The position numbers and the translations under genes are program-made. A DNA stretch of 64,000 nucleotides from Rhodothermales bacterium (GTDB lineage: Bacteria > Bacteroidota > Rhodothermia > Rhodothermales > DASSAV01), in assembly GCA_041690215.1 (NCBI GenBank), contig JAWLHQ010000005.1:234349-298348 (forward strand), written 5' to 3'. Below are positions 15,504 to 37,785 of this stretch, one piece after another (the first letter of the stretch is position 1; each line of letters starts with the position of its first letter). The notes below the pieces were generated by a model. That model did no database searches and was not told the origin of the DNA. It was given only the letters and a program-made list of their open reading frames with translations.

Positions 15504-16340
15504 TCACCACTTTCCCATCCACCACGCGGCCAGCGCCGTAACAGCGGGCCACGCCACGATGAGGTCGATTCCCGCACCGTTCAGCCACCTCGAGGCAGCA
15601 TACGGTCGCAGCGTGGCCGCAAGCATCATCAATGGCCCAATCAGATCGATCAAAAACAGGATCTGGACGCGCTGGTGGAACGCCAATCCAAGCCCAATGG
15701 CAAGTGCCAGGACGAGGCTGCAGGCCGCCAGAAGCCGAATGGCTCGTTCGGAAAGCATCGTTGCCGCCGTTTGAAGGCCCACCCGCGCATCCCCCTCTCG
15801 ATCCGGCACATCCGCGATCACCGCATTGGGCAGTATGAACAGAAAGCGGTATGTGGCAAAGGCGAGCGTTGTCCACGTGATCGCGGCTCCGGCCTGGACG
15901 GCCGGGAGCAGCACGCCGCCTACTGCCCACCCGCTGCTGATGAACAGCGGCTTCAGAAACCATACGGACTTGCCGCGCCGCCCTCCCGGCAGCAAGGGCG
16001 CCATATAGAACAGGCTGACGGCTCCGAGTGCCACGCACCACCCGAAGGTCTCCGGACGTAGGGCGGGAAAAGCAAGCACAGAAAAAACACAGGCGGCCCC
16101 GATCGCCCCCCAGAAGTAACCGCGATGCGCCCGCATCCATGACACCCGATCCGGATGATTGTACATGTCTTCAGGAGCCCAGCCCCATCCTCGCTCGATG
16201 TGGTAGACCAGAAACGCTCCGCAAAACCCGAGCAGTAGCAGAGGCACACTCACCGGCAAACCAACCAGGGCATACGTCCCCAGGATAAAGGAGACCGCGA
16301 TCAGGCCTATATACAGGTTGGTGTGTAGCAGATGCCTCAT
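15504..16340 (-). CDS. UbiA-superfamily prenyltransferase-like membrane protein
   Basis: About 8 hydrophobic helices. Asp-rich motifs EDMYNHPDR and ADVPDREGD resemble the two UbiA motifs. Confidence 0.6.
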   Translation of the reverse strand: MRHLLHTNLYIGLIAVSFILGTYALVGLPVSVPLLLLGFCGAFLVYHIERGWGWAPEDMYNHPDRVSWMRAHRGYFWGAIGAACVFSVLAFPALRPETFGWCVALGAVSLFYMAPLLPGGRRGKSVWFLKPLFISSGWAVGGVLLPAVQAGAAITWTTLAFATYRFLFILPNAVIADVPDREGDARVGLQTAATMLSERAIRLLAACSLVLALAIGLGLAFHQRVQILFLIDLIGPLMMLAATLRPYAASRWLNGAGIDLIVAWPAVTALAAWWMGKW

Positions 16341-16484
16341 CGGCTACCGGCACAATCCCTATCTGAACGACTTGAACAAGACATTACGGCATCAACCACC
16401 CCGGCAACCACGTGCGCCAGAGCCCTGATCACCCATCCAGTTTTCCTAATGACGATGCCTGTGTTTCCGTTCCTTCGTGCAGAT

Positions 16485-16520
16485 ACAAAGAAGGGACGGC
16501 GCATATGCCTGCGCCGTCCC
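16485..16520 (-). terminator. rho-independent terminator ending the TonB-receptor/PorV/thioredoxin operon
   Basis: 11-bp stem GGGACGGCGCA (16493-16503) / TGCGCCGTCCC (16510-16520). The minus-strand tail is TTCTTTGTATCTG. Confidence 0.7.
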
Positions 16521-16544
16521 TCCCTACACCGATGGAGATGTCGA

Positions 16545-17069
16545 TCACAACAACGGCTGAATGGTCTCTTTTAGCGTCGCGACAGAGACGACCTCACCGA
16601 ACCATATCCTCCGGATCTTTGCTTTTCTATCGATGACGTAGATGCCCGGGGTCGGTGCTGGCTCTCCCTGGAAGCTCTGGTAATAGTTGAAGATCCTGCT
16701 GTTTTCCGTGTCATCACGAAGTACGCGATATGGAATGTCGAACGCATCCACGAATGCCTTGAGATCGGCTTCAGATGCTCGAGAGATACCGACGACTTCC
16801 AGCCCCTGAGCGTGGAGATCGCCATGCAACTCCACCATCTGAGGGACCTGTTGCTGACAGGTCGAACAGCCTACGTTGAAGAAATTCAACACGACGACCT
16901 TCCCGAAGCTGTTCGAGAGTTGAAATTCTACTCCGTTCAGATCCTTCAGGATGAAGTCGGCCGTTTTATCCGGTTGAAGTTCAACGGGGTCGTCATTGCA
17001 CCCCGTCGCTAGCATAAGACTCAGCGCGAGAATCGGCCCTATAGCGAGAGCACGCCGGATGCAATTCAT
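16545..17069 (-). CDS. TlpA-like thiol-disulfide oxidoreductase lipoprotein (thioredoxin fold)
   Basis: Lipobox LSLMLATGC from ATG 17069, with GGAGGGGAG upstream. CxxC motif in VVLNFFNVGCSTCQQQVP. Confidence 0.8.
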   Translation of the reverse strand: MNCIRRALAIGPILALSLMLATGCNDDPVELQPDKTADFILKDLNGVEFQLSNSFGKVVVLNFFNVGCSTCQQQVPQMVELHGDLHAQGLEVVGISRASEADLKAFVDAFDIPYRVLRDDTENSRIFNYYQSFQGEPAPTPGIYVIDRKAKIRRIWFGEVVSVATLKETIQPLL

Positions 17070-17172
17070 AATCTCCCCTCCATAATACACTGAATGTTGT
17101 GAACAGGCCGGAACCCCGGACCTCTCCTGTTCCCGATTCCCCTTGCATACAGCCGTTGCCATACGCCGGGCA

Positions 17173-18210
17173 TTACTCAAACCGTAGGCCGATCCCGACT
17201 CGATGCAGGGCACCAAAGAACTCGTCGGTCCTGCCATACGCGTAATCCGCTTTCAGGCCAATGCCGCCCGTGCCCACCTTCACCCCCACACCTGCCGTGA
17301 GGCCCTCCGAGTCATAGTTGAATTTGTACCCGCCCCGCAAGAAAATCGCGTCCATGAATCCGTACTCGGCTCCGATATGAACACGCTCGGAGAAATCGCG
17401 CGGATGGAGCCAGTCCACGCCGACGTTCAGCACGCTCCGCGAGGACTCACCCGCCGCCGACGGTAGCAGGTTCAGCAGGTTCATCGCCAGGCCCACGTCG
17501 AACGTCAGTGGCAATTCGAAGCGCTGATCGTAATAGTCGGCCTGATTCGAGAAATTGCGGATCGAGACACCGAAACGGAGGTCTTCGAAACCCGGATAGA
17601 ACAGCGTACCGAAGTCGAAGGCCAGGTTGCCGAGCTTGTTGTCCACGACCTCGATGGTGCCGTTGACCAGGTCGCTGATGGCGACGCTACCAAGATCCTG
17701 GTGCGCGTACTTGATCTGACCGCCAACGTAGAACTGACTGGTGATCTGCCGCGCGTACGTTACTCCGACGGCGTACTCGGCCACCGTGAACGTGCCCTCG
17801 TCAATGTAGCCGTCTTGACGCAGGTCTGGATCCGTTCCCTGGTAGACCGATGTGCGGCGGAACTCCCCATAGTCCATACTGACCACGCTCACGCCAAACG
17901 TACCGATGTTGCCGACGCGAAACGCAGCGCCCCCGCCGTAGTGCTTGATATCAGCGATCCAGCTGGTCGTACTGAGCAGCACGTCACCTCCCTCCAGCAT
18001 GGCGAGGCCCGCCGGGTTGGCGAACATCGCTGAGGCGTCACCGCTCACGGTCGCGTGCGTGCCGCCCAGTGCGGCCATACGGCCGCCCACATCGAGGGTC
18101 AGGAATTTCATTCCGGCCTGTGCGTACTTCACCGGTTGTGCCTGCAATGCGCCGGCCGCCAGGGTGAGGCAGAGCGCGGCGAGCAGGATGCGATAAGATG
18201 TATGTCTCAT
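17173..18210 (-). CDS. PorV/PorQ-family outer-membrane beta-barrel protein (T9SS-associated)
   Basis: Signal peptide from ATG 18210. AGMKFLTLDVGGRMAALGGTHATVSGDASAMFANPAGLA matches the conserved PorV N-terminal pattern. Ends in an aromatic-rich beta-barrel terminus ...GIGLRFE. Confidence 0.75.
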   Translation of the reverse strand: MRHTSYRILLAALCLTLAAGALQAQPVKYAQAGMKFLTLDVGGRMAALGGTHATVSGDASAMFANPAGLAMLEGGDVLLSTTSWIADIKHYGGGAAFRVGNIGTFGVSVVSMDYGEFRRTSVYQGTDPDLRQDGYIDEGTFTVAEYAVGVTYARQITSQFYVGGQIKYAHQDLGSVAISDLVNGTIEVVDNKLGNLAFDFGTLFYPGFEDLRFGVSIRNFSNQADYYDQRFELPLTFDVGLAMNLLNLLPSAAGESSRSVLNVGVDWLHPRDFSERVHIGAEYGFMDAIFLRGGYKFNYDSEGLTAGVGVKVGTGGIGLKADYAYGRTDEFFGALHRVGIGLRFE

Positions 18211-18272
18211 GTCGATACCCCATGTGCTAGGATGTTGAGCAAGCGTGTGGTTCTGTGACGGGATACCCCCGT

Positions 18273-20393
18273 TCACTTGATGACCACGAACTTGCCGATA
18301 GCCTGCTCGCCGGTGGGATTGCCGCTGGCATCCAGCTCCTCAACGACGTAGATGTAGACGCCACTGACGATCTCCATCGTGCTGAATGTGTCCTGGCGCT
18401 CCCAGTCCTCATCCCCCGTATTGCCCATATGGCGTAGCGTCTGCACTTTATCCCCGGTCATCGTATAGATGTGGATGTTGGCGTAAGGGGGCGTATTGAG
18501 GAAGTTCAGACGCCGGTTGTTGACACCGTAGTTGGCCGCACCGCTCAGGTGGTACGGGTTCGGCACGACCACGATGTTCTCCTTCCAGTTGGGATCGGGC
18601 GTACGCGTCGGGGCTACCGCCTCGTCGCTCCGCGTCGATGATGTACCCGTGCGGTTCTGGTAGGCGTTGCTCTCCACCCCGTTGACCGTGACCGCCGTCA
18701 CGTAGTAGTAATACTGCTCCCCGCGAATGACATCCGTATCGACATACTCGTAGGTCCCCACGGGCAGATCGTTTTCATCGGCAATCAGGATGTGCGTTGT
18801 GTCCGTCGGGAGGGTGATGTTGATATCACGCTTGAAATCGCGGTAGATGCGGTAACCAGCAATGGGATCGGCGCGGTTGTCCTGCTCTGCTTCCCGGCCC
18901 CAGGCGATCCGGATCTGGTCGTTTTCCGATGTAACGGTCAGGGAGGGTGCTGCCGGGGCAAACTCCACATTGAACTGTCCCTCTCCCTTCCGCACCATAC
19001 TGTTCTCCCACGTACGCCGGGCCTTGCTGGCGGTCTGGAAGGCATAGAACTGGCCCATATCCAGAATCCGATCCTTCTGGTCCCGTGAAAGGGTCGATCC
19101 CGCACTGGCAATCAGGTTACCGTTGAGGTCATACACATCCTCGGGCAGCGGAATGAGGTTCAGCTGGGCCGTGTTGCCGTTCTTGTAAGCCCGCCCCGCA
19201 TCGATGGCGAGACGATGCGGAATCTGCCCGCCCGCGAAGGCGACCACGACCCGAAAGTCCTCGCCGGGCTGCAACTGGTACGGGCCGAAGCTGAAGAGCG
19301 CCGCCTTCTCCTGCTCCGTCTGGGAGCTGGAATTGCGCACGTCCCAACCCGGCCGCAAAATGCGATACCAGCCGCCCTTAACCGTCGTAGCGTAATCACC
19401 GGGGTTCGAAGGATCCCACGGCATACTCAGGAAATTGTAAACGTTCTGGTGATCGCTACTCCCGAGGTCCGGAGAAAGCTGGCGCTGCGACCAGCCTGCC
19501 TTGATTGGCTTGCTCGGATCGTCGCTCTCATCTGACGGACTCTTGTCCGCGTGGATCACCGTATAGGCCATGTACTGCGGTTCCTGGAAAACGCCGTAAA
19601 TGGACTCAGGATGACCTCGCGGATCCACGCCGGCCTGTGGATCACCCGCGCCCCAGGAATACCAGACGCGCATGGAATCGGCAGTGGGGTCTCCCGCCAC
19701 GTACTCCTCGTAGGTAGCCCCGTAATAGTTTCCCCAGATATCGCCGGGGTAGTGTTCATTACCGTTGGTCTGGGCGGTCAGGCCGAGGTACACGTCGTTC
19801 CGGACCTCGTTGGAGGTATTGGTAACGACGTACTCCATGATGATATAGTCGTCATGCTCAGGGTTCGCGAACGCGTACGCCCAACGCTCCAGCTGCAGCC
19901 CCATCCCATAGGCAGGCCACCCTTTCATCTTCACGTACGCCATCGCATCCGATGGGATGTTGGGATCGATCGGATCGAGCTTGTCGAAGTTGCGAGTCCA
20001 GTCCTGCCCGTCGATGGTCTTCGTCGGATACGGATTGCGGAAGACCCGCTTGAAGGCTCCGGGCTCCGGTACAAAAATGTCCTCGATGTTTGTCGTCTTG
20101 TTATGCGCCACCTGTGCGATCTGCACCGGCCAGGAGACCCCGGTCGCATCGGTCCAGCTGCGCCGCACGCCGAGGATGACGCCGTGGTTGGTCAGCATCG
20201 TCTGGTCCGTCCACGGCTGGTATCTCGGCCACAGAATCGCATCTTGCGTGAGCCCCTCGTTCATGTTGTAATGCATGGCGCCGATGTTGATCTCACGGCT
20301 CTGCTGGGCCCGTGCGGGACTGGCCCCTGCTACCGCCAGCAACACCAGACCGCCCAGGAAGAGGCATCGAAAGGCCCCGATTCGTCTATTCAT
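18273..20393 (-). CDS. large secreted protein of unknown function with FN3-like segment and T9SS-CTD-like C-terminus
   Basis: Signal peptide MNRRIGAFRCLFLGGLVLLAVAGASPARAQ from ATG 20393. C-terminus VVVPNPYHLSGA...NIHIYTMTGDKVQTL...SGVYIYVVEEL...GKFVVIK resembles a T9SS sorting domain. Confidence 0.7.
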   Translation of the reverse strand: MNRRIGAFRCLFLGGLVLLAVAGASPARAQQSREINIGAMHYNMNEGLTQDAILWPRYQPWTDQTMLTNHGVILGVRRSWTDATGVSWPVQIAQVAHNKTTNIEDIFVPEPGAFKRVFRNPYPTKTIDGQDWTRNFDKLDPIDPNIPSDAMAYVKMKGWPAYGMGLQLERWAYAFANPEHDDYIIMEYVVTNTSNEVRNDVYLGLTAQTNGNEHYPGDIWGNYYGATYEEYVAGDPTADSMRVWYSWGAGDPQAGVDPRGHPESIYGVFQEPQYMAYTVIHADKSPSDESDDPSKPIKAGWSQRQLSPDLGSSDHQNVYNFLSMPWDPSNPGDYATTVKGGWYRILRPGWDVRNSSSQTEQEKAALFSFGPYQLQPGEDFRVVVAFAGGQIPHRLAIDAGRAYKNGNTAQLNLIPLPEDVYDLNGNLIASAGSTLSRDQKDRILDMGQFYAFQTASKARRTWENSMVRKGEGQFNVEFAPAAPSLTVTSENDQIRIAWGREAEQDNRADPIAGYRIYRDFKRDINITLPTDTTHILIADENDLPVGTYEYVDTDVIRGEQYYYYVTAVTVNGVESNAYQNRTGTSSTRSDEAVAPTRTPDPNWKENIVVVPNPYHLSGAANYGVNNRRLNFLNTPPYANIHIYTMTGDKVQTLRHMGNTGDEDWERQDTFSTMEIVSGVYIYVVEELDASGNPTGEQAIGKFVVIK

Positions 20394-20536
20394 AATAACG
20401 CTCGCTTGATTACGCATGGGGATGCTGCCTGGTCTGCTTCACCGGCCAGCGGGAGGATTCTGTATCACCGGACCAGAACTCCCTCCCGCTCGCGAGCGGC
20501 GAATGGCTGCAGCCAGGAGTCGGAAAAGTGCCTTGC

Positions 20537-23500
20537 TCAGAAGTAGAGCTTTACACCGAAGAAGATGTCGCGCTTCTCGATGAAGAGGAAGTTGTAGAAG
20601 CCCGGCAGGTCGATGTCGTCTCCCTTCCAGTCACCCGGACGGTACTTGCCTGTCGTCTTCCCATCTTTCTCCACCTTGAGGCCGAGAGACTCCATGTAGG
20701 CCCTGAACTCCTGCTTGAAGAACTCATTGTCGTCCCAGACCCAGTTGTCATGGATATCCGCGGTCCCCTGCTGCGTCATGTTGCGTTTATTGAAGACGTT
20801 GCTCACGTCTATGTAGAACAGGCTGGAGAAGCGGCCCTGCCGGAAGAGATCCTTCGAGAAACGCAGGTCCCAGCGGGAGTAGGGACGCCAGCGGACGTTG
20901 TTCTCGATGAGAGGTAATTGCTCGGGATTCCACGTGAACTGCTTGCCGCGCTGCCACGTGTAGAGCAGGTTCACGTTGATACCGCCTAACAATGAGAACG
21001 ACTCGTTCCCCGGCCCGAATCGATCCGGCGTGTGGAAGTCTATGTTCGCCTTGATGACGGGCCGCACGTCGGCATCAGATACCTGCGACGAGACGAACCG
21101 CGGCTGGCGCGTCGGATCTTCGTAGAACTGATCGTACCCGAACTCGCCCTCGGTTTCGACTCGGTAGTCGAAGCTCGTCCAGCCGCTTACGAAAGGAACC
21201 GTATTCCGGCGCAGTTCGAGGAGTGCCTCGAAGCCGCGCACGTCCTTGAACCGCTGGTTCGTACGGGTGGTGTAACTCGCCCCGCCGAAATTGATCGGGA
21301 AAAACTGGGTGTTGTCGTACTCGTTGTTGATGTCGCGGTAATAGCCCGTCAGCCGGAGGTTCATCCGGTTGAACAGGTTGTGTTCGTACCCAAGTTCGTA
21401 CGCGATCGTCCGGGAAGGCTCGAGATCAGGGTTGCCAATGTTGTTGACCCGGAACTGAGCGTTCCGCTGCCGTTGCACCCGGTACATGTCCAGCGCGTTC
21501 GGCCACTGGTAGGCATGCCCGTAGTTGAAGAAGATCTTGGCGACGGTCGTGATCGGGTGCGAAATCCCGATACGCGGGCTGAGAACCACGTGCGTGCGCC
21601 GCTTTGACGGGATCGCGTCGAACTCATCCGCCCGCCCGCCGAGCAGGAACTCGGAGTAGGGCCCGCCCTCCGGATCGTTCGGGTCACCTGCGATGAGCGC
21701 GGGGAATTTCGCCGTATTCAGCCAGTCGGCTCGGACCCCCAGGTTTGCCACGAGTCCTTTGAATTCCAGCTTGTTCTGCACGTAAAATGCACCCATCCAG
21801 GGGGTCGCATTTGATGCTGTCGAGTCGCCGCCGTTGACCGAAGGGTCAATCGCGTTGTACATCTGGAATACTTTCAGACGCTCGACTTCGAATCCAGCCT
21901 TCACCTGGTTGAACCGGTTTACCTGGCTCGTCACACTGCCCCAGAGCCTGGATTGCCGTGAATAGGTTTCGTTCTGGCGGATATTGCACGAGGACATACG
22001 GAAGACGCCGCTCTCGTCACGGAACTGGTCCGGCATGTATCCCCAGGGAGCTTCGTCGTAATAGTAGTCGCCGATCTTGATCTTGGCCCAGTCACGCCAG
22101 TTCTCCCAACCGACTACCCCCTGAGCCGCAAGTGCATCCGCTTCTTGCTCCGTACCGATGAGGCCTTCGAGACGGCTCGTGAGGCCCCACGGGGACCCCG
22201 GAACCGGCGCGGTATTGCGGACTTCCTGGAGCATCTCGTAGTCGGCGCGGGAATGCGAGAAGTCCAGCTGGAAGAACGTGTTGGCCGAGACCGTATGTGT
22301 GATCGTACCGCCGTAAATCTGTCGTGTCTGCTGGCCCGGTACGGCGCAATGCAAGTACCACATCTTGTTCATGGCACCGTCGATCGAACGGAACGGGTTG
22401 CTTGAAATGAACCCGTCGATGGACGGTCCCTGTCCGCCGTCACCCCCCTCCTGCCGGGCATAGAAGCCGTGCAGGTTCAACCGCGTCTTGGGTGTGATAT
22501 TCGTGGTGATACGGGCGCGGAACGAGTTATCCGTATAGGCGCGGTTGACCGTACGCGGATTGTACTCGGTCTGCTGCCGGTCATACGAAACGAAAAATTT
22601 GACGGAGTTCAAGAGCGGAACCGGTCCTCCCAGGGTGAATCCCGCCGTATAGTCGGGCAGCGTTCCGTACTCGTGGATGGCATCGTCCATGCTCACGTCA
22701 TACCCCATCTCGCGCAGTTTCTTGATGGAGTCACGCGAGCGGTGCCGCCACAGATAGCGCGCATACAGTTCCTGCGCGCTCTGCTCCAGTTCGGCCTGCG
22801 TCCATTTACCATCTTTGACGCCGTCCTTGAGGTCTACATAGTGTGGACCTGCGAGCCCCTCGTTCTCAGCGTTCGCGTAGAACCCCTTCCATCCGGCTTC
22901 GAAAAACGGATTCGGAATCCGTTCGCCATTCGCATCGAGCTTGTACGTCACTCCGTCCGGCTCCATCAGATAGCCCGTGAAAGCGCCCATCGTAGGATCG
23001 ACGAACGGCTGAACGACCGGGGAATCGTGGCTGAACAGCATCGGGCCGAAGTGCTTGATGCCCGGTGCGCTGTAGCTGAAGTTGATGGAGCCGGAGTAGA
23101 CGTCACCTCCCTCCTTCGTAGCCACGTTGACGACGCCCGTCTGTAAATTGCCATACTCCGCCGCGAAACCACCCGTCTGGATCTTGACCTCCTCAACCGC
23201 GTCGAGGTTGACCTTGAAGTAGGGCCGGTTCGTCAGCGCATCCCCCTGAGACACACCATCCACGATGAACAGGGCCTCATCGAACGCACCGCCCCGGATA
23301 CCCGGACGATCCTCATAGGCGCTGATCGAGTTCACGCCGACCGTCGTCCCGACTACGCTCGTGACATTCTGAAACCGCCCGGCCTGAATTTCCTCCGCAC
23401 TGATATTGCGCTGCGTACCGGATATGTCCTGCTGAATGATCGGCGCATCGGCGATGACGACGACCTCATCCAGTCCGACGGTTTCCTCTCCGAGCGAGAA

Positions 23501-23794
23501 GTTCACCTCTGTGGTTAGGTCGATATCGACATTCACCCCCTGGATGACCTGAGGCGCGTACCCTATGAATGACGCACGCAATGCGTACGTACCTGGACGA
23601 ACGTTCAGGATGTTATAGTACCCGTCCAGGTCGGTTATCGAACCCTGTGTCGTACCGTCGATTACGACGCTCACTCCCGGCAATCCCTCGCCGGACTCGG
23701 CATCCGTAACCCTACCGGCAATCTTGCCTACCTGTGCCATGGCCGAAGCCGGTATCAACAGGGTCAACAAGGCCAGTAACTGTACTCTTCTCAT
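20537..23794 (-). CDS. TonB-dependent outer-membrane receptor with N-terminal carboxypeptidase-regulatory-like domain
   Basis: 1085 aa. Signal peptide. GKIAGRVTDAESGEGLPGVSVVIDGT...GYYNILNVRPGTYALRASFIGY is a CarboxypepD_reg-like segment. Plug-like segment follows. C-terminal ...FFGVKLYF beta-barrel terminus. Confidence 0.9.
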   Translation of the reverse strand: MRRVQLLALLTLLIPASAMAQVGKIAGRVTDAESGEGLPGVSVVIDGTTQGSITDLDGYYNILNVRPGTYALRASFIGYAPQVIQGVNVDIDLTTEVNFSLGEETVGLDEVVVIADAPIIQQDISGTQRNISAEEIQAGRFQNVTSVVGTTVGVNSISAYEDRPGIRGGAFDEALFIVDGVSQGDALTNRPYFKVNLDAVEEVKIQTGGFAAEYGNLQTGVVNVATKEGGDVYSGSINFSYSAPGIKHFGPMLFSHDSPVVQPFVDPTMGAFTGYLMEPDGVTYKLDANGERIPNPFFEAGWKGFYANAENEGLAGPHYVDLKDGVKDGKWTQAELEQSAQELYARYLWRHRSRDSIKKLREMGYDVSMDDAIHEYGTLPDYTAGFTLGGPVPLLNSVKFFVSYDRQQTEYNPRTVNRAYTDNSFRARITTNITPKTRLNLHGFYARQEGGDGGQGPSIDGFISSNPFRSIDGAMNKMWYLHCAVPGQQTRQIYGGTITHTVSANTFFQLDFSHSRADYEMLQEVRNTAPVPGSPWGLTSRLEGLIGTEQEADALAAQGVVGWENWRDWAKIKIGDYYYDEAPWGYMPDQFRDESGVFRMSSCNIRQNETYSRQSRLWGSVTSQVNRFNQVKAGFEVERLKVFQMYNAIDPSVNGGDSTASNATPWMGAFYVQNKLEFKGLVANLGVRADWLNTAKFPALIAGDPNDPEGGPYSEFLLGGRADEFDAIPSKRRTHVVLSPRIGISHPITTVAKIFFNYGHAYQWPNALDMYRVQRQRNAQFRVNNIGNPDLEPSRTIAYELGYEHNLFNRMNLRLTGYYRDINNEYDNTQFFPINFGGASYTTRTNQRFKDVRGFEALLELRRNTVPFVSGWTSFDYRVETEGEFGYDQFYEDPTRQPRFVSSQVSDADVRPVIKANIDFHTPDRFGPGNESFSLLGGINVNLLYTWQRGKQFTWNPEQLPLIENNVRWRPYSRWDLRFSKDLFRQGRFSSLFYIDVSNVFNKRNMTQQGTADIHDNWVWDDNEFFKQEFRAYMESLGLKVEKDGKTTGKYRPGDWKGDDIDLPGFYNFLFIEKRDIFFGVKLYF

Positions 23795-24312
23795 GGAATG
23801 GCCCTCCTTGATTAGTACGTCTGCCCTTCACTCCACCCCATCCAGGCACGTTGGGGACGGAGTTATGGCGTATGTTTGCTACCGAAACGAGCACAGAAAG
23901 CGCTTCCTGACAGGCCGCCTTTCAGCAGCACAGGGAAAGGCTGTACCCATGCCCACATCTCGTGCAGGGATAATCAGGTACGCGGCTGATGTCTACTATC
24001 CTGGCGCCCTGCCCTTCTCCTTCAGATCAGCGGTGAGTCGCAAGTGGGTGATCGCTCACCGCCTACCGGGCGGGCGTAAACGTCCGTCTATGAAAGGTGC
24101 CGCCCAGGGAGCCCCAGAAGCCGTTCCGGTGTGTCTCCTGTGTGGCACGAGCGTTCTATTTCAAGGTGGGGCGGCCCAAGTTAACGCTTAAGGAGAAGAA
24201 CGGAGCGGCAGGCGGTCACGGTGAGAACGGGATCATCCTGCAGCACCTCTCATCGTCACGACCTGAAATGCCGGGGGACGGCACCTCGTGACAGGCTTGG
24301 GACGCAAAGGCG

Positions 24313-24341
24313 ATTCTACAAAACCGCCACACGCATGTCAA
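24313..24341 (-). promoter_or_regulatory. candidate sigma-70-type promoter (TTGACA-N17-TAGAAT) facing the TonB-receptor operon
   Basis: On the minus strand, TTGACA (24341-24336), a 17-nt spacer and TAGAAT (24318-24313). It is not known whether this organism uses this consensus. Confidence 0.35.
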
Positions 24342-24830: not shown

Positions 24831-25949
24831 CTACTGGGCCGCCTCCGCAAACGCCGCGTAGTCTGTCTCGATCACCTCAGGCGCAGCCACTCCGGTGTAG
24901 ATGATGATGCGGTGTTTGAACGTCGTGGACTCACCGGCAGCAAGGCTGAAGTTCAATTCCTCCTTCCCACCACTCAGGTCCTTTTGCCCGAGTGGGTTGG
25001 CCGCAAAGAGCCCGTAACCGCGGGCATGCCAGTACGTGGGGAATCCGGGATTCTCGGGGTTATCCAGAATCACGACGCTCACAGAGTCCCCCTCCAGGAC
25101 GCCGGATAGCCGCATCCACCGTCCTCGCGTTCCCCAGACGTCCTCTCCCTCGATGCCCTCACTGCTGAGGTAGTGGCCCGTCACGCCCTCGTTGTTCAGA
25201 ACCGCGACCTCCGTCGGCTTGCCGCTGGCATCCGTAAAGATCTCTGGCTTCGTGGCGGGATGCTCCAGCGCACGCGTCACCCGAAGGCCGAGGACCCCTT
25301 CCTTATTGTCCTTCAGGCTCACGGGCTCATCGAGCGCTGTCAGCGTAGTAATCCGGTCGATAGCTCGTTTACCATCTTCGTAGGCGCGGAAAACATAACG
25401 CGTATTCTCCTCAAGCAGCACGTCTCCGCTCGGGTTGACCCACTCGGCTGAAACCTCCAACACACCCTGCCCCTCTCCGCCTTCGGCGGTATTGATCATG
25501 GTATGCCGGATCGTACCCATCTTGGCAACACGATCCCCAGTGATCGCGTCCGAGTTATTCCAGAAGTCGAATCCGTTCACGTCCCCGTAATTGAACCACA
25601 GGCCGATGTGATGCGGGTGGTCCGTCCGTTCGCCTGCCTTCTGCTCAAACGGGTAGCCGCGCGTAATGGCTTTCCCGTTCGCCGTCAGGATCGGATACAG
25701 CACCGGCTTCTTCAGAACCGGAAGGGCGTCCGTGTAGAGATAGGATGTGAACGGCTGCCCGCCGACAAACACATCCACACGCTTCTCTGCATCGTTCCGA
25801 ACCAGCTCGACTCTCCGGGCACCGGCCTCCGACGGCGCCGCGTCGCCCTCTCCGGGGACATCGGACTGGCAGGCTGCGATCCCTGCAGTAACGGCTGCGA
25901 CAACAGCCAGCGAACACGCGTTGCGAATACCGGTCTTTAAGCTGATCAT
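24831..25949 (-). CDS. DUF6807/PmoA-family protein (secreted)
   Basis: Lipoprotein-like signal ...AGIAAC. TDHPHHIGLWFNYGDVNGFDFW and YWHARGYGLFAANPLG are signature segments of this family. Confidence 0.85.
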   Translation of the reverse strand: MISLKTGIRNACSLAVVAAVTAGIAACQSDVPGEGDAAPSEAGARRVELVRNDAEKRVDVFVGGQPFTSYLYTDALPVLKKPVLYPILTANGKAITRGYPFEQKAGERTDHPHHIGLWFNYGDVNGFDFWNNSDAITGDRVAKMGTIRHTMINTAEGGEGQGVLEVSAEWVNPSGDVLLEENTRYVFRAYEDGKRAIDRITTLTALDEPVSLKDNKEGVLGLRVTRALEHPATKPEIFTDASGKPTEVAVLNNEGVTGHYLSSEGIEGEDVWGTRGRWMRLSGVLEGDSVSVVILDNPENPGFPTYWHARGYGLFAANPLGQKDLSGGKEELNFSLAAGESTTFKHRIIIYTGVAAPEVIETDYAAFAEAAQ

Positions 25950-26037
25950 AGGTTACTCGGTTCAGTGTGACGGTTCGTAAAAGCACGGCAGGCCGTGCCG
26001 CTGCGTTCGTTCGAGTCCGGAAGTTCACCCGATCGCA

Positions 26038-27381
26038 TCAGGCAACGACGACCTCCTGCTGCTCATCGTCGAACGTGATGCGTTTGCCGGTTTGGATGGC
26101 TGCGATGTTCATGATGAGCGCGATTGAGTGATTGTAGGCCGCCCGGACATCCGCGTTGGGCGTCTTGCGGCTCCGAATGCATTCCATCCAGTTGCGAACG
26201 TTGGCCGAGGTCGCGTCATCCACGCCAGTATTCGCCGCCGTTTCCATACCGCCTGCCGCGGCCAGCTTCATCTCGGAAAGCAAATTGGCCTGCATACCCA
26301 TCGCCTTTGCGTGGTTCTCCTGCAGACCACCTTCCGCCGAGATCGTGTTCGTGTCCAGGTTAAGGGTGCCGCCATTCGAATAGTAGATCTCTTTTACGCC
26401 GCCCGCCGAGTTCGTCATCCGCGACGAATAGGTTACCTGGAATCCTTTGTTCGGATTGTCGAACGGGCCGTAATCGAACACGGCTGTCATGGTATCCCAG
26501 TTGCGCCGTCCGTCGTTCCAGAGGTAGATCCCTCCGTTGGCGACGACGCTCCTGGGCCGCGGTAGACCGGTGAACCAGTGTACGGTATCGATCTGATGAA
26601 CCAGCCACTGGTCTGGAATACCGGACGAGTAGGGCCAGAATAGGCGGAATTCAAGGTACTTCCGCGGGTCCCACTCCTCATAGGGACGATTCATCAGGTA
26701 ACGGTTCCAGTCCGTATCCTCCTTCCGGATCGCAGCCACTTCCCTCGGCCGGCGCCAGCGCCCCGGCTGGTTGACGTTCCACGTCATCTCGACCGCCACG
26801 AGATCGCCGAACTGGCCGGACTTAATGTACTCGTTCGCGAGCTGATAATTGCGTGCGCTCCGCCGCTGCGTACCGACCGCAAACACCCGGTCGCTACCCT
26901 CTACCGTTTTCAGCCCCAACCGCGCATCATCGATGGTATTCGCCCAGGGCTTCTCCGAATAGACGTCCTGCCCCGCATTGATGGCTTCTACGGTGTGAAG
27001 CGCATGCTGAAAGTCCGCCGTACTGATAATGACCGCATCGGTCATTCCGGAGTCGTACAACTCCTCGTTGTTCCGGTAAGGCGTAACCTTGCCGCCTGTT
27101 TTTTCCGATATGGCCGCGGCTCCCTCCTCACGGCGCTTGTTCCAGATGTCGGAGACCGCCACGATCTCCATGTTCAGCTCACTGCTATGCTTAAGGAATG
27201 CGGGAATCAACGAGCCGCGCGCCCGGTCGGAGTACCCCACGATCCCCACACGCACACGGTCGTTCGCGCCGATGATGCGCGCGTAGCTGTACGCGGGCAT
27301 GCTCATGGCGATTCCGGCCCCGGCCGCGCCAGCAGCCGCCTTCTTGATGAAATCCCTTCGTGAGCTCGTGTCATTCAGCAT
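26038..27381 (-). CDS. Tat-exported Gfo/Idh/MocA family oxidoreductase
   Basis: Twin-arginine signal SRRDFIKKAAAGAAGAGIAM. Rossmann start VRVGIVGYSDRA. Confidence 0.9.
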   Translation of the reverse strand: MLNDTSSRRDFIKKAAAGAAGAGIAMSMPAYSYARIIGANDRVRVGIVGYSDRARGSLIPAFLKHSSELNMEIVAVSDIWNKRREEGAAAISEKTGGKVTPYRNNEELYDSGMTDAVIISTADFQHALHTVEAINAGQDVYSEKPWANTIDDARLGLKTVEGSDRVFAVGTQRRSARNYQLANEYIKSGQFGDLVAVEMTWNVNQPGRWRRPREVAAIRKEDTDWNRYLMNRPYEEWDPRKYLEFRLFWPYSSGIPDQWLVHQIDTVHWFTGLPRPRSVVANGGIYLWNDGRRNWDTMTAVFDYGPFDNPNKGFQVTYSSRMTNSAGGVKEIYYSNGGTLNLDTNTISAEGGLQENHAKAMGMQANLLSEMKLAAAGGMETAANTGVDDATSANVRNWMECIRSRKTPNADVRAAYNHSIALIMNIAAIQTGKRITFDDEQQEVVVA

Positions 27382-27521
27382 GGCAGCCTCCTTAAGCGTT
27401 TAAGTAAAGAACCTGTCTTATCTCCGCATCACGTATACCTCCTCCGTTGTCTCATCTGAGCTGCCCGAACAGCAGACCGCCCGTTTGAAGGCGGTCTGCT
27501 GTTCGCGGCTGGTAGTCAAAC

Positions 27522-28928
27522 TCACGATAGCAGCTTCATACCGTCCGGATCCCAGGCATACGGACGCCTGGTCTCATAGCTCAGGTTTGCCAGGAGTGGC
27601 GGCGCCGCGGCGCGATAGCCGAACACCGGACCCTCCACGACCGGCTTACCCTCACGGATTCCTGCAAAAAAGTCAGCGAAGTGGTCCAGACGGTCGTCGT
27701 ATCCCTGCGGTACCCTGTATTCGATGCTCTCGTCCAACTCGGCAGGCGGACTCGTCGGATGCTCGCGGCGATACTGCTCCACGAACTGCCGCTGCACCTC
27801 TTCCGAGAACGTGAAGACCGAGTTGTAACCTTCGACCAGTTGCTGCTCTGTCGGCGGGCGCATGGGACGGCGTGACAGGCGGAGCGTACCACCTTCGATG
27901 CTCATCGCCCCCTCGTCTCCAATGAACCGGAAGACCGTCCCGCCTCCACCACCATGAGCGAAGTTCGTCTGCAATGCCAGGGTAAAGTCCGGATGCTTAT
28001 CCGTTTCCGGGTACTGGTACAAACCCAGCATGACATCCGGAGCGTCCCGGCCATCCTTCCATTTGCGGATCCCCCCCACCGCATAGATCTCGGTCGGGCC
28101 CTTCGCACTGATGGCACGGTGGATACCCGTGAACAGGTGAACGAAAAGGTCTCCGGCCACACCCGTTCCATAGTCCGAATAATTGCGCCACCGGAAGAAA
28201 CGTACGGCGTCGAACGGACGCTTCGGCGCGTTCCCCAGGAACGTATCCCAATCGACGGTCTCGGGCGACGCATCGGGCGGAATCGAGTATTGCCAGGCCC
28301 CGAGCGATGAATTCCGGTTATACGAGGCCTCGATCATGTTCAGCCGTCCGATGGCTCCGGCCTCGAACAGTTCCTGCGCCTTGGCGAAGATGAGCGAGCT
28401 TGCGAACTGGCTTCCCACCTGGAGCACGCGGCCCGTCCGTTCCTGCGCGGCAATCACCTCCGGGCCCTCCTCTACCCGGTGCACCATCGGCTTCTCGAGG
28501 TACACGTGCTTGCCTGCTTCCATCGCATCTACCGCGATCTGCTTATGCCAGTGATCCGGCGTGGCTACGATGACCGCATCGATATCCGGCCGGGCCAGAA
28601 TCTCCCGGTAATCGCGCGTCGTGAAGATGTGATCGCCGTAAACCTCCTTAACCCGTACGAGCCGGCTGTCGTAAAGGTCGGCAGCCGCGACGAACTCGAC
28701 GCCGGGCACCCGCAGAGCCGTATTGACATCGCTGTACGCGATGATACCCATTCCGATGGACGCAATCCGAATCCGATCGTTCGGAGAAACCGGCTTGAGC
28801 GGTTCCGCTGTCAACAGTTGAGTCCGGCTGCCCGCCAGCGCGGAGGTTGCGAATCCTGCAGCTACCGTGGAACTAGCTGCCAGCTTGAGAAAGGAGCGTC
28901 GCGATGTACTTCTGCCTGCCATCTGCAA
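27522..28928 (-). CDS. Tat-exported Gfo/Idh/MocA family oxidoreductase
   Basis: SRRSFLKLAASSTVAAGFA Tat signal. IRIASIGMGIIAYSD Rossmann start. EKPM motif. Confidence 0.9.
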   Translation of the reverse strand: MQMAGRSTSRRSFLKLAASSTVAAGFATSALAGSRTQLLTAEPLKPVSPNDRIRIASIGMGIIAYSDVNTALRVPGVEFVAAADLYDSRLVRVKEVYGDHIFTTRDYREILARPDIDAVIVATPDHWHKQIAVDAMEAGKHVYLEKPMVHRVEEGPEVIAAQERTGRVLQVGSQFASSLIFAKAQELFEAGAIGRLNMIEASYNRNSSLGAWQYSIPPDASPETVDWDTFLGNAPKRPFDAVRFFRWRNYSDYGTGVAGDLFVHLFTGIHRAISAKGPTEIYAVGGIRKWKDGRDAPDVMLGLYQYPETDKHPDFTLALQTNFAHGGGGGTVFRFIGDEGAMSIEGGTLRLSRRPMRPPTEQQLVEGYNSVFTFSEEVQRQFVEQYRREHPTSPPAELDESIEYRVPQGYDDRLDHFADFFAGIREGKPVVEGPVFGYRAAAPPLLANLSYETRRPYAWDPDGMKLLS

Positions 28929-29057
28929 GGAACCCTTAGATTGTTAAGGTGCAACAACATTGCGGTAGAAAGCCCTGCCATAAACGGGCGTCTCTACACG
29001 GATGCTTCAATAAACAACGTTCACACGGTAGTCACAAGCCCGGCCTGCCATTTCCGG

Positions 29058-30386
29058 CTAAAGCGCCCAGGACGTCCGGTATTCTGAAATCAACAAAGCC
29101 TCTGCCTCGGGCAGATCGACGGCAACTTCCCGCTCTCCGTCCCACTGAATCTGCCGCCCGAGGCGGTACGCCACGTTCCCGAGCATCGCCGTACTGCTCG
29201 ACCGGTGGCCGATCTCGATATCGCAAATCGGCTTCTCTCGGGATTTCACGGAGTCCAGGAAGTTGGCGATGTGTTTACTGCCGTCGTTGCCTTCGTTCTT
29301 CAGTTCCAGCGGCTCCAGGCTGCTCCCCTTCTCCGGCATTAACTTGAGCACGCTGCGGTCGACGAACAGCGTCCCGTTCGTCCCGTGAAACATGATGCCG
29401 TAGCCGTGCCCCTCCATCGGGAAACCGTTATCCTGGCGATTCTCGTAGGTCGCAACGAACGTCGGATACTGGTATGTAGCCACGATAGTATCCGGCGTGT
29501 CGCGGTTGTCCTGGAGATAAAACTTGCCGCCCACGGCCGCAACCGACGTAGGATAGTCGACCTCCATGGCCCACTGCACGATATCGAGCAGGTGAACCCC
29601 CCAGTCCGTCATCATGCCTCCGGCATAATCCCAGAAATAGCGCCACGTTGCCCACCGCGTGAAGTTGCCTTCGGCATCGACCGCAACACCGAACCGGTTG
29701 GCATTGTAGGGCACACGTGGAGCCGGTCCGAGCCACATCTCCCAGTCCAGCCCTGCAGGCGGCGCGCCGTCCGGCGGATTGCCAATCCCTGCCGGATACT
29801 CGTTGCCATAATTCCAGGTACGGACAAAGCTGATCGGGCCCAGCTTGCCGCTTCGCACGATATCCACGGCGTTCTGAAATACGAAGCTGGAACGCTGCTG
29901 CGTGCCAACCTGCACGATGCGGTTGTTTTTCCGCGCCGCCTCGACCATCTGGCGTCCCTCGGAAACCCGTACCGCCGTGGGCTTCTCGACGTAGACGTCC
30001 TTCCCGGCTTCGGTCGCAAGGATGGTGTTCAGCGCGTGCCAGTGATCCGGAGTCACGACAAAGACCGCGTCCACTTCGGGCCGTTCGAGCAGCCGTCGGA
30101 AATCCGTATACGTCTGTGCGTCCGGAGCCCGCTGGGCCGCCCAACGCAGATTGGGCTCGTAGACGTCCGACAGCGCAACCACCTGCGCCGTCGCCGCATG
30201 ATCTTGCAGGAGCCGTTGCAAGTGCCCGCGCGCCTGTCGGCCCATCCCGATGATTCCGATCCCGATCCGCTCATTGGACCCGAGAATACGGGCATAACTC
30301 GATGCGGGCATACCGACCGCAGCCCCGGCCAACCCGGCCGCAACAGTCTTGACGAAATCCCGGCGCGTAGCAACTGAGATCGACAT
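29058..30386 (-). CDS. Tat-exported Gfo/Idh/MocA family oxidoreductase
   Basis: TRRDFVKTVAAGLAGAAVGM Tat signal. IGIGIIGMGRQARGH Rossmann start. VYVEKP motif. Confidence 0.9.
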   Translation of the reverse strand: MSISVATRRDFVKTVAAGLAGAAVGMPASSYARILGSNERIGIGIIGMGRQARGHLQRLLQDHAATAQVVALSDVYEPNLRWAAQRAPDAQTYTDFRRLLERPEVDAVFVVTPDHWHALNTILATEAGKDVYVEKPTAVRVSEGRQMVEAARKNNRIVQVGTQQRSSFVFQNAVDIVRSGKLGPISFVRTWNYGNEYPAGIGNPPDGAPPAGLDWEMWLGPAPRVPYNANRFGVAVDAEGNFTRWATWRYFWDYAGGMMTDWGVHLLDIVQWAMEVDYPTSVAAVGGKFYLQDNRDTPDTIVATYQYPTFVATYENRQDNGFPMEGHGYGIMFHGTNGTLFVDRSVLKLMPEKGSSLEPLELKNEGNDGSKHIANFLDSVKSREKPICDIEIGHRSSSTAMLGNVAYRLGRQIQWDGEREVAVDLPEAEALLISEYRTSWAL

Positions 30387-30404
30387 GACGCGGCCCTCCG
30401 GTGG

Positions 30405-31295
30405 TTAGCCAAGAGATACGGTTACGCTGGGCGCACCCAGCCCGGCCAGCACGCCCCGCATATACGCGAAGGATTCCAGCATGCCCGGCAGCGGATCGTC
30501 GGCGTTGATTTCGTACTCGAGATTGACGTACCCCTGGAAGTCCATCTTGATGAGCTGCCGAAAAATATCGGCAATCGGCATCTTCCCGCGTCCCACGATC
30601 ACCTGGCTCTCCCTCACCATGAGGTCACTCAGGTCCTTGATGTGCATATCGAGGAGCCGGGGTCCGGCGTCTGCGATGGCCGCCACCACATCCGTACCTG
30701 TACGCGTCGTGTGCCCCACGTCGATGCAGAGCCCCATGCGCGGGTCCATATCTTTGATGACCTCCAGCGCATCGGCAGGAGCCGGATAAAACTTGTCCTC
30801 CGGACCGTGGTTGTGGATCGCGACCTTGATGTCGTACTGCTTGGCGAACCTCTCTACGCGCGGCATGATCTCCGGAGCCCCCGTTACCACCATAAGCGGC
30901 ATGCCGGCATTCTTGGCATACTCGAAGTACTTGCCAACATCCTCGTCCGTATCCTCCTGGAACGTGATCGTGCCGCCGCCGACGACCTGCAATCCGGCAT
31001 CGGCAAAGTCCTTCCGTGCCGCCGCATACTCTTCCGCCGTGCTCTCATACGGAAGATGGAACGACTTGATGTTGACGTATGGCGTGCCGATCTCCTTGAT
31101 CATCGCAATCGCCTCGGGCCGGCTGAACTTGCGCAGCGAGTAGCTCGCCACCCCCAGTTTAACGCCGCCTTTCACCGCGCCTGCACGAGCTACACGGACC
31201 GGCTCTGCAAAGGCCTGCATGGGCGCAACGGCAACACCGGCCAGCCCCACAGCCGCCCCTTTCAGGAAATTCCGTCTCGATTCCCCTGCTGTCAT
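30405..31295 (-). CDS. Tat-exported sugar phosphate isomerase/epimerase (xylose isomerase-like TIM barrel)
   Basis: SRRNFLKGAAVGLAGVAVAP Tat signal. IAIHNHGPED, DVGHT and YVNLEYE metal-ligand-like motifs of the AP endonuclease 2/xylose isomerase-like fold. Confidence 0.88.
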   Translation of the reverse strand: MTAGESRRNFLKGAAVGLAGVAVAPMQAFAEPVRVARAGAVKGGVKLGVASYSLRKFSRPEAIAMIKEIGTPYVNIKSFHLPYESTAEEYAAARKDFADAGLQVVGGGTITFQEDTDEDVGKYFEYAKNAGMPLMVVTGAPEIMPRVERFAKQYDIKVAIHNHGPEDKFYPAPADALEVIKDMDPRMGLCIDVGHTTRTGTDVVAAIADAGPRLLDMHIKDLSDLMVRESQVIVGRGKMPIADIFRQLIKMDFQGYVNLEYEINADDPLPGMLESFAYMRGVLAGLGAPSVTVSLG

Positions 31296-31378
31296 GATAG
31301 CCCCCTGGTCTAAGTTGATGGCTCAAACGGTAGGAGTTGGGTTTCAGGTACCAGTGATCTCACTACCCGAACACCCTC

Positions 31379-32242
31379 TTATTGCTCCGCAGGCAGCGGG
31401 CGCACCTTGATATTCCGGTACCACACATCGTCGTTATGGTCCTGAAGAACGATGTGCCCCTTCCGGTTATCCGCAAATCCTTGGATATCCTTGTACTTGC
31501 TGGCAGCCAGATATTGGTTGAATTCCTCGCTGCCGATCTCGTACTCCACGACCTTCTCGCCGTTCAGCCAGTGCTCGACGTGGTTGCCCTGCTTCACGAT
31601 GCGGCCCTGGTTCCACTCTCCCGTGGGTTTCATCTTCTTGTTCGCGTTCGGCGGAATCATGTCGTAGAGAGCGGCCGCCGTGCGGTTTCCGTTGACGCCC
31701 ATCTTCGCATCCGGATGCAGGCTGTCATCGAGCACCTGATACTCGAACCCGAGCGCCGCCCGGGCCATGGGGTTCCTCAGCGACATTTCTTCCGAGACGT
31801 TGTACTTCACGCCGCTGTTGGCGCCGGGGCTCAACTTGAAGTCAAAAGCGAACTCGAAATTATCGTAGGTATCAACCGTTATCAGGTCGCCCCCCCGAAG
31901 CGGCTGCCCGTCAGGAGCGACCGGCACCTTGCCGCTGGCCACCTTGTGCAGGGTGCCATCCTCGATGACCCAGTGCTGCGCGGGTATCGAATCCTGCCCG
32001 ATGCCGCGCCAGTTCTCAAAGCTCTCGCCGTCAAAAAGGAGAATCCAGCCCTCTGCTTGCTCCTGGCTCGTGAGCGTGTTCACCGCCGCAACGGCCGTTT
32101 CACTCGCGTCCCCCGCCGGAGCGGGCTCCGCCCGGTCCCCTGCACAGGCACTCACCGTACAGGCAACGAGGCCGGCAGCTGATGCGGATAGCAGCATGTG
32201 CAGGGTGGACGATGTGTGCCCGGTCAGGTCTCGGTAGAACAT
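31379..32242 (-). CDS. DUF1080 (3-keto-disaccharide hydrolase family) secreted protein
   Basis: GWILLFDGESFENWRG, FEFAFDFKLSPGANSGVKY, GFEYQVLDD and HIVLQDHNDDVWYRNIKVRPL are typical DUF1080 segments. Confidence 0.88.
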   Translation of the reverse strand: MFYRDLTGHTSSTLHMLLSASAAGLVACTVSACAGDRAEPAPAGDASETAVAAVNTLTSQEQAEGWILLFDGESFENWRGIGQDSIPAQHWVIEDGTLHKVASGKVPVAPDGQPLRGGDLITVDTYDNFEFAFDFKLSPGANSGVKYNVSEEMSLRNPMARAALGFEYQVLDDSLHPDAKMGVNGNRTAAALYDMIPPNANKKMKPTGEWNQGRIVKQGNHVEHWLNGEKVVEYEIGSEEFNQYLAASKYKDIQGFADNRKGHIVLQDHNDDVWYRNIKVRPLPAEQ

Positions 32243-37760: not shown

Positions 37761-37785
37761 CACCACCATGCGCTCCGCTCTGATG

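Follow-up and report, generated by a model that had tools for sequence, protein, structure and literature searches.

We describe here a gene cluster in a 64,000-nucleotide stretch of DNA (the window) from the Rhodothermales bacterium contig JAWLHQ010000005.1. Four minus-strand open reading frames (ORFs), running from position 23794 down to 16545, encode a TonB-dependent receptor (TBDR), a secreted protein that we refer to as X, an outer-membrane beta-barrel and a thioredoxin-like lipoprotein, and are closed by a terminator hairpin (Table 1). An earlier note on this DNA had reported four clustered minus-strand genes ending at one terminator and had assigned their identities. Both points stand: all four ORFs are present, the hairpin is real, and the assignments agree with the Pfam and NCBIfam matches. 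The note's description of the sequence is correct apart from its start codons, which need to be moved; with the likely starts the intergenic gaps are 143, 62 and 103 bp. The C-terminal domain (CTD) of X, which it had given as 18273-18575, is placed here at the position listed in Table 1.

Table 1. Features of the gene cluster and its immediate surroundings (window coordinates; aa, amino acids; CTD, C-terminal domain)
Feature	Coordinates	Strand	Description
Upstream same-strand neighbours	24831..32242	-	3-keto-glycoside-type gene suite (Pfam, N-terminal signals)
Sigma-70-like promoter match	24313..24341	-	TTGACA-17-TAGAAT, 11/12; in the non-coding 1 kb upstream of the TBDR gene
TBDR, 1085 aa	20537..23794	-	Signal peptide, N-terminal extension, plug, large barrel
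Protein X, 706 aa	18273..20393	-	Likely start 20393; ORF extends to 20417 (714 aa)
X N-terminal domain, aa ~32-465	18999..20300	-	Large beta-sandwich ending in a long helix (model)
X Fn3-like domain, aa ~480-572	18678..18956	-	Model; many Fn3 structural matches
X CTD, aa ~606-706	18276..18578	-	7-strand beta-sandwich (model); divergent, PorZ-like type IX secretion system CTD
Barrel, 345 aa	17173..18210	-	Signal peptide; likely ATG start 18210 (ORF to 18276)
TlpA/ResA-like lipoprotein, 174 aa	16545..17069	-	Likely start 17069 (ORF to 17237); lipobox LATGC, CSTC motif
Intrinsic terminator hairpin	16485..16520	-	Closes the four-gene unit; 14-bp GC-rich stem, then UUCUUUGU

The first three genes of the cluster form a widely conserved unit. 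A scan of one genome per species returned 156 loci encoding relatives of X, distributed over Rhodothermales (including the cultured Roseithermus sacchariphilus), Balneolales, Ignavibacteria, Calditrichota, KSB1 and Neomarinimicrobiota/Fidelibacterota. When gene order was checked by tblastn with the four window proteins over ~85 loci, the arrangement TBDR-X-barrel, in fixed order and on one strand, was present in almost all of them and in essentially all of those with enough flanking sequence. The TBDR gene is always first, directly upstream of X, and the barrel gene always third, directly downstream. Recurrence in ~85 independent loci takes this arrangement far beyond chance. The conserved unit is the triplet and not the quartet that the earlier note had proposed: the TBDR-X-barrel part is conserved beyond this genome, which was the note's own test of its proposal, and the thioredoxin gene is found in only ~13 loci. 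Several genomes carry more than one module, either in tandem (OZ252093, L061) or otherwise (KSB1 Bin_228, PL23a_bin.4), and three X genes lie on a single 8.1-Mb contig. A second copy of the module was sought in the 64-kb window and none was found.

The product of the first gene is a TonB-dependent receptor by its Pfam matches (CarbopepD_reg_2, E 5e-22; Plug, E 2e-8; TonB_dep_Rec_b-barrel, E 4e-22), with scores for PF07715 (35 bits, cutoff 23.9) and PF00593 (80 bits, cutoff 27) that exceed the cutoffs of both models. A carboxypeptidase-regulatory-like extension at residues 25-113 precedes a plug at residues 122-220, and at residues ~109-115, between extension and plug, lies the sequence DEVVVIA, which we take to resemble a SusC-type TonB box. 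The SusC/RagA model TIGR04056 aligns to the receptor at model positions 2-216 only, that is, over the N-terminal extension and plug, and scores 101.4 bits where the cutoff is 368. Judged by these matches, the receptor has a SusC-like architecture that falls short of membership in the SusC/RagA family.

Protein X has no match in Pfam. It carries a type I signal peptide ending ARA/QQ and has no lipobox. Its closer homologues comprise 80 full-length proteins at 40-61% identity, likewise without a Pfam domain, the few named ones being called 'hypothetical protein'; a second, distant clade at ~25% identity has hundreds of members. In a profile search of 1.84 billion representatives ~1000 relatives were retrieved at E<=1e-30, the top 150 of which are mostly full-length proteins of ~700 aa, the others being giant Fn3-repeat proteins that align to profile positions 480-575. 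A 996-aa homologue (P0380) has precomputed domains that include LRR repeats and a Por_Secre_tail, and may have arisen by fusion to an LRR-CTD gene next to it (cf. L086:18312-19844) or be a gene-calling artefact on its 3.6-kb contig.

An AlphaFold2 model of X built on a 43-sequence alignment (pLDDT 89, pTM 0.85) is composed of a large beta-sandwich, an Fn3-like domain, a conserved linker and a 7-strand C-terminal sandwich. In a Foldseek comparison with the PDB the best matches of the N-terminal domain are N-terminal beta-supersandwich domains, first that of the GH94 cellobiose phosphorylase 8ho9 (E 6e-9, TM 0.25) and then those of GH116, ExoMA2 and dextran dextrinase. Such matches, made with a predicted structure and good in E-value but low in TM score, are no more than a hint of carbohydrate biology. 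The N-terminal domain also contains a motif, LHAD-S--D--DDP-QP, that is kept in both clades, with H281 and D283 invariant. SusD is an alpha-helical, TPR-like lipoprotein. The model of X is all-beta save for one long helix and is unrelated to SusD in sequence or fold, and X has no SusD or RagB match in either Pfam or NCBIfam, so that it is at most a functional analogue of SusD.

CTDs that address proteins to the T9SS (type IX secretion system) are 7-strand Ig-like sandwiches with the motifs PNP, GxY and K-x-x-[VI]-K. The CTD of X has the seven strands, the corresponding fold matches in the PDB and recognizable motifs (VVVPNPYH, IHIYTMTGD, SGVYIYVVEE and GKFVVIK), as expected of a T9SS CTD of any class; the window protein falls outside type A as defined by TIGR04183 and PF18962. 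Modelled alone (pLDDT 85), the domain has PorZ as its top fold match (5m11, E 6.7e-4, TM 0.61), and the NucA CTD from the F. johnsoniae translocon (8glk_D), PorU, 8gl8_D and the RgpB CTD also lie within the top 30. The family as a whole gives the same picture, through many weak sequence matches. The C-terminal positions 669-754 of the T9SS_PorZ model match 19 of 29 and 8 of 43 X members in two samples (best E 2e-7), Por_Secre_tail matches 13 of 29 and 8 of 43 in NCBIfam samples and 11 of 23 in a Pfam sample (E down to 4e-5), and the type B model CHU_C of Pfam weakly matches 13 of 23. T9SS tails are the only models matched repeatedly by X CTDs, the PorZ C-terminus being the most frequent. Some members are named 'T9SS type A sorting domain-containing protein' by NCBI or have a precomputed PF18962 domain, and the single weak match of a CTD profile to PDB sequences (E 1.6) is to the NucA CTD, itself a T9SS CTD. 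On this evidence, in good part from models, the domain is a T9SS-type CTD with PorZ-like affinity, and X is predicted to depend on the T9SS. The T9SS-type C-terminus claimed by the earlier note is thus upheld at the level of the family and of structure, while remaining below threshold in the window protein.

That the organism uses a T9SS follows from another gene in the window. The 780-aa product of the plus-strand ORF at 8044-10386 contains a Big_5 domain and has a genuine type A tail (Por_Secre_tail, E 1.9e-9), which aligns motif for motif with the X CTD, the latter carrying extra inserted residues.

Mean pairwise identity within X is highest in the CTD (63%, compared with 51% for the Fn3-like and 47% for the N-terminal domain). 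This fits a permanent binding role better than that of a disposable export signal, for which the reverse would be expected. Taken with the analogy to PorZ and the co-divergence with the barrel described below, this suggests that the CTD is kept on mature X.

The third gene encodes a 14-strand, FadL-type outer-membrane barrel which, as the earlier note had proposed, belongs to the PorV/PorQ family (NF033709, 177 bits against a cutoff of 90). It scores well below the equivalog cutoffs of the individual family members: 95.5 bits against 220 for PorQ (NF033711), 47.7 against 250 for PorV (NF033710) and 48.9 against 325 for PorV2. The same is seen throughout the family of modules, where 43 of 43 barrels match NF033709 and all fall well under the PorV and PorQ equivalog cutoffs. 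A profile of these 43 barrels finds F. johnsoniae PorV (6h3i_F, E 4.7e-18) as its best match among PDB sequences, with TodX at 1e-5. Weaker similarities are to Pfam Toluene_X (E 0.0013, window barrel), to the PorP/SprF family (11 of 43 barrels) and to BamG (7 of 43, E 5e-5). The sub-equivalog scores, and the occurrence in several genomes of at least two modules each with its own barrel, indicate from sequence that the protein is a module-specific paralogue, as the earlier note had supposed; a housekeeping PorV identity is ruled out by module conservation and paralogy together with these scores. In our proposal the barrel serves X as its cognate carrier and anchor. Some loci have a second arrangement beside the canonical module, namely a TBDR gene immediately preceded by a gene for a PorV/PorQ-family barrel (L051:11261-15353, L063:6999-9953, L067:14454-16076).

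Co-divergence of the three proteins was analyzed in 58 non-redundant modules by comparing distance matrices of the TBDR, X and barrel and by partial Mantel tests. The raw correlations between matrices are 0.91-0.97, showing that the three genes travel as a unit. With the other parts controlled for, correlation persists between the X N-terminal domain and the TBDR (r 0.76, p 0.001) and between the TBDR and the barrel (r 0.49, p 0.001), and the CTD correlates with the barrel given the N-terminal domain and the TBDR (r 0.39, p 0.001). The remaining pairs show little or none (N-terminal domain and barrel, r -0.07, p 0.90; CTD and TBDR, r 0.08, p 0.045). Such a pattern would be expected from contact between the CTD and the barrel, joint action of the N-terminal domain and the transporter, and placement of the two barrels side by side; since the partial Mantel test is anticonservative, it is suggestive only.

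The fourth gene stands apart from the module. Its product has the fold, CxxC motif and export signal of a TlpA/ResA-like thiol-disulfide oxidoreductase (AhpC-TSA, E 4e-22, 78.8 bits; Redoxin, E 5e-12; ResA NF002854, E 5e-18), with scores that stay under the ResA and TlpA equivalog or subfamily cutoffs. All ~13 of the ~85 loci in which such a gene follows the barrel gene are of a close Rhodothermales type. None of the modules from KSB1, Calditrichota, Ignavibacteria, Balneolales and Marinimicrobia has the gene, and AhpC-TSA accounts for 10 of 130 downstream neighbours. This distribution rules out the thioredoxin as a core member of the module. A role as folding factor for X or the barrel is also ruled out, mature X and barrel having no cysteine and the TBDR only two. 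It might instead act on the substrate or be redox-protective. One Rhodothermales locus (L046:6913-8146) has two tandem TlpA-like thioredoxin genes after the barrel gene.

The hairpin that closes the four-gene unit begins 24 bases past the last stop codon and is strongly stable (minimum free energy -40.2 kcal/mol, z = -6.2, with none of 200 shuffled sequences folding as well); it does not appear in the list produced by a simple terminator scan. At the other end, a 1-kb stretch without a credible ORF (23795-24830) separates the TBDR gene from a DUF6807 gene. A hidden gene in this gap was considered and is ruled out by the lack of credible ORFs, and no Rfam match indicating a riboswitch or other RNA control of the TBDR was found at E<=1 across 15000-26000. 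The sigma-70-like match within the gap is a possible promoter of the TBDR gene, such sites being weak evidence by themselves (4 found, 3.1 expected in shuffles). In related loci (e.g. L009:2291-3253) the equivalent gap is filled by a Tat-signal, AP_endonuc_2-like gene; a remnant of this gene was sought in the gap of the window and none is left.

Beyond this gap lies a set of same-strand genes that encode a DUF6807 lipoprotein, a PF06439 3-keto-disaccharide hydrolase lipoprotein, three Gfo/Idh/MocA oxidoreductases and a xylose-isomerase-like TIM barrel, the last four all with RR Tat motifs. A periplasmic 3-keto-glycoside pathway has been characterized in B. thetaiotaomicron (BT2156-2160; PMC8121099; bioRxiv 10.1101/2024.03.25.586180), and by its domain content the suite in the window looks like a complete pathway of this kind. 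The link to the module is not confined to this genome, in that a Gfo and DUF6807 gene pair lies directly upstream of the TBDR gene in 7 other Rhodothermales loci (L009, L010, L015, L019, L023, L025 and L027) and DUF6807 alone in another (L032). We infer that the window module imports glycosides or oligosaccharides for the 3-keto-glycoside pathway.

Modules elsewhere are accompanied by genes for LacI regulators, DHDPS-family proteins, alginate lyase/heparinase, SSF transporters, GHL10 with a T9SS tail, GH16 with a weak T9SS tail, NAGPA and GHL10 both with T9SS tails, and sulfatases. The 130 immediate downstream neighbours include 22 with a genuine Por_Secre_tail and 19 with a TIG domain. Five genes make up the module in the distant clade (L085:13184-15869; also L004 and many of L051-L084), the barrel being followed by a TIG lipoprotein with a VVSC lipobox and a beta-propeller-like C-terminal part, and then by a beta-propeller protein that bears a true type A CTD. 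Gracilimonas tropica has GHL10 and NAGPA enzymes with T9SS tails after its five-gene module. The xylan locus Rmar_1070-1073 of Rhodothermus marinus has a TBDR co-transcribed with Xyn10A, after which come a hypothetical protein bearing a Por-secretion CTD, a second hypothetical protein and a further CTD protein (PMC6987092). The order matches that of the module, making this a candidate instance; no R. marinus names are among the best 120 listed in either X homologue search. Were it an instance, it would tie the module to xylan use in a cultured model organism. Further along the window (34714-40946, minus strand) genes of haem biosynthesis, for ferrochelatase, coproporphyrinogen III oxidase and uroporphyrinogen decarboxylase, lie among unrelated genes and have no apparent link to the module.

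These observations can be accommodated by a model in which the triplet is a conserved nutrient-uptake module whose T9SS-delivered X is held by its cognate barrel beside the TBDR, where it captures substrate. We put the chances that this model is correct at about even. X would be exported by the Sec pathway and then cross the outer membrane through the T9SS by means of its CTD. The CTD would not be removed, and would be held by the barrel in the way that PorQ holds PorZ and PorV holds PorU, placing the beta-sandwich and Fn3-like domain on the cell surface next to the SusC-like receptor. There X would capture, and possibly cleave, the substrate and hand it to the TBDR. It would in this way fill the role that SusD and surface glycan-binding lipoproteins play in the polysaccharide utilization loci (PULs) of Bacteroidia, with an unrelated fold and with a T9SS tether in place of the lipid anchor. 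In the window the substrates are likely to be glycosides or oligosaccharides, degraded by the periplasmic 3-keto-glycoside enzymes encoded upstream. The T9SS dependence of X, the retention of its CTD, the physical complex of X, barrel and TBDR, the capture function, which the earlier note had also suggested, and the substrate are to be read as predictions.

A number of points weigh against this model. The tail of the window X scores 16.2 bits against TIGR04183, for which the type A cutoff is 23 (E 0.0077). Ig-like sandwiches are common, and the fold E-values of the CTD are modest even for the best match. The case for CTD retention is made from conservation and from analogy with PorZ only. The likeness of the N-terminal domain to glycoside-hydrolase N-terminal domains is weak, as its TM score indicates, and says little on the ligand. 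The three genes share a single history, as their high raw correlations attest, and the test used to separate their parts is anticonservative. Some modules have peptidase-like neighbours (PD40 and DPPIV_N, in 7-9 of 101 upstream neighbours), so that the class of substrate may vary and probably differs between module paralogues. The thioredoxin is left with no explained role, given the lack of cysteine in mature X and barrel.

Other readings of the triplet have to be weighed against the same evidence. One keeps the anchoring and makes X a surface enzyme that cuts polymer for the TBDR in place of a passive binder. In its favour are the glycoside phosphorylase and hydrolase domains that head the fold matches of the N-terminal domain, the polar motif with its invariant H281 and D283 in both clades, and the lack of an obvious endo-acting enzyme near some modules. 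The matched regions of GH94, GH116 and GH15-type enzymes are, however, non-catalytic N-terminal sandwiches, aligned with a TM of only 0.25; no carbohydrate-active enzyme, peptidase or lyase model in Pfam or NCBIfam matches X, bar weak PelI matches in 1 of 43 and 4 of 29 members; and separate T9SS-tailed hydrolases adjoin many modules. We judge an enzymatic X to be unlikely, though deserving of attention. We think it distinctly improbable that the barrel is only a secretion carrier, in the manner of SprF for SprB, with X released, or linked to lipopolysaccharide by PorU, after CTD cleavage and with no stable complex of X, barrel and TBDR. A general PorV would suffice for type A cargo, yet a barrel of its own is retained by each module; no domain of X is more conserved than the CTD, which best resembles the uncleaved CTD of PorZ; and the co-divergence of the barrel with both CTD and TBDR survives control for the other parts. 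What speaks for a pure carrier is that PorV-type carriers normally pass type A cargo on to release or lipopolysaccharide linkage (PMC10994853, PMC5562754), and that the tails of some X members attain the type A threshold, as their names reflect.

The link to the T9SS could also be superficial, the barrel being a FadL-type channel or TBDR accessory (e.g. for hydrophobic or amphipathic substrates), the CTD a plain Ig-like domain and X exported by another route. The weak similarity to FadL and TodX (Toluene_X, E 0.0013; TodX, 1e-5 by profile), the sub-threshold CTD of the window protein and the presence of FlgD and Fn3 sandwiches among the CTD fold matches would be in keeping with this. Set against them are PorV/PorQ scores far above those for FadL (177 bits; 4.7e-18 for 6h3i compared with 1e-5 for TodX), the restriction of repeated CTD matches to T9SS tails, the type I signal peptide of X, which without a lipobox needs a route across the outer membrane, and the enrichment of bona fide T9SS cargo genes beside the modules. 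We consider such a superficial link very improbable. Finally, the adjacency might be fortuitous and the barrel a housekeeping PorV or PorQ. Nothing beyond the family name of the barrel recommends this view, which is refuted by a gene order kept in ~85 loci over several phyla, by multiple modules per genome, by the position of all tested barrels under the PorV and PorQ equivalog cutoffs and by the strong co-divergence of the three genes, leaving it with practically no credence.

If the anchored-capture model is right, the triplet may represent a widespread class of outer-membrane nutrient-capture system, a ternary assembly of a SusC-like TBDR, a T9SS-delivered X tethered by an uncleaved PorZ-like CTD, and a private PorQ-like barrel; for this wider proposal we rate the chances slightly short of even. 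Were it true, SusD-independent substrate capture would exist in Rhodothermia, Balneolia, Ignavibacteria, Calditrichota, KSB1 and Marinimicrobia, and providing uptake systems with modular surface anchors would be a second general role of T9SS carrier barrels. Nutrient capture in Bacteroidota is understood almost wholly through SusC/SusD pairs. Ignavibacteria, Calditrichota, KSB1, Marinimicrobia and their like are polymer degraders of oceans, sediments and hot springs with many SusC-like receptors in need of surface partners, for which X is a concrete candidate. The module would also extend the idea of a cognate carrier for T9SS cargo from secretion machinery and gliding adhesins to metabolism, and it provides a starting point for the annotation of 700-aa proteins that form a large family now called 'hypothetical', together with the PorV/PorQ-family paralogues. 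Roseithermus sacchariphilus MEBiC09517 and Gracilimonas tropica are cultured carriers of the module; Rhodothermus marinus is only a possible one.

The module would join TonB-dependent uptake to type IX secretion, a coupling for which we found no published description, and a search for a prior description of the TBDR-X-barrel triplet found none in the searchable literature. It has parts in common with several known systems. Like SusC-SusD, it has a large TBDR (N-terminal extension, DEVVV-type TonB box and plug) and, adjacent to it, a co-evolving gene whose product is, here by prediction, a surface protein, and it occurs in multiple copies per genome among glycan-degrading genes and LacI-type or other regulators. 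It differs in that X has neither similarity to SusD in sequence or fold nor a lipobox, that the barrel gene is obligatory and that the TBDR fails the SusC/RagA model. As PULs are defined by an adjacent SusC/SusD pair (PMC8121099) and no SusD homologue is found in the module with Pfam or NCBIfam, the locus is PUL-like by context only.

A likeness in the anchoring part is offered by BamG, a FadL-type barrel that anchors the surface protein BamH (PMC12611786). BamG shares with the module barrel the FadL-family 14-strand architecture and conservation across FCB phyla, and the extracellular part of the barrel anchors the surface protein (PMC12611786). BamH, however, is a lipoprotein and not a T9SS cargo, the pair functions in outer-membrane protein biogenesis, and BamG is matched by only 7 of the 43 module barrels.

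The nearest relatives of the proposed arrangement are found within the T9SS itself. Within the F. johnsoniae translocon the CTD of a cargo is bound to the carrier PorV at its extracellular loops, and type B cargoes exit with alternative cognate carriers that then anchor them (PMC10994853). As in the module, the genes for SprB and SprF of F. johnsoniae, and those for PG1035 and PorP, place a cargo beside its own carrier-anchor (PMC10994853, PMC10947112), and the weak matches of X CTDs to CHU_C and of module barrels to PorP/SprF point the same way. The module carrier is nevertheless of the PorV/PorQ family and not PorP/SprF, the CTD of X is nearer to PorZ and type A than to type B, and the known type B pairs serve gliding adhesins and not a TonB-dependent transporter. 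The P. gingivalis proteins PorZ and PorU are T9SS cargoes that retain their CTDs and are anchored at the surface by PorQ and PorV, respectively (PMC5562754, PMC10947112). The earlier note had taken PorV as shuttle or anchor for its precedent, and better ones are PorQ-PorZ, PorV-PorU and the type B cargo/carrier pairs (PMC5562754, PMC10947112, PMC10994853). It had known of no characterized example; a dedicated barrel for one cargo has already been characterized in these systems, and it is the coupling to a TBDR that has not. PorQ and PorZ are single-copy components of the lipopolysaccharide-attachment machinery and are not paired beside a TonB transporter, the beta-sandwich and Fn3-like domain of X are unrelated to the beta-propellers of PorZ, and the module barrels, encoded in multi-copy modules in nutrient-utilization contexts, lie below the PorQ equivalog. 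The X CTD nonetheless matches that of PorZ best in both fold and sequence, and the PorQ model gives the window barrel a higher score than the PorV model does, so that by analogy the X-barrel pair is best read as a cargo and carrier of the T9SS scheme, with PorZ-PorQ as its closest counterpart.

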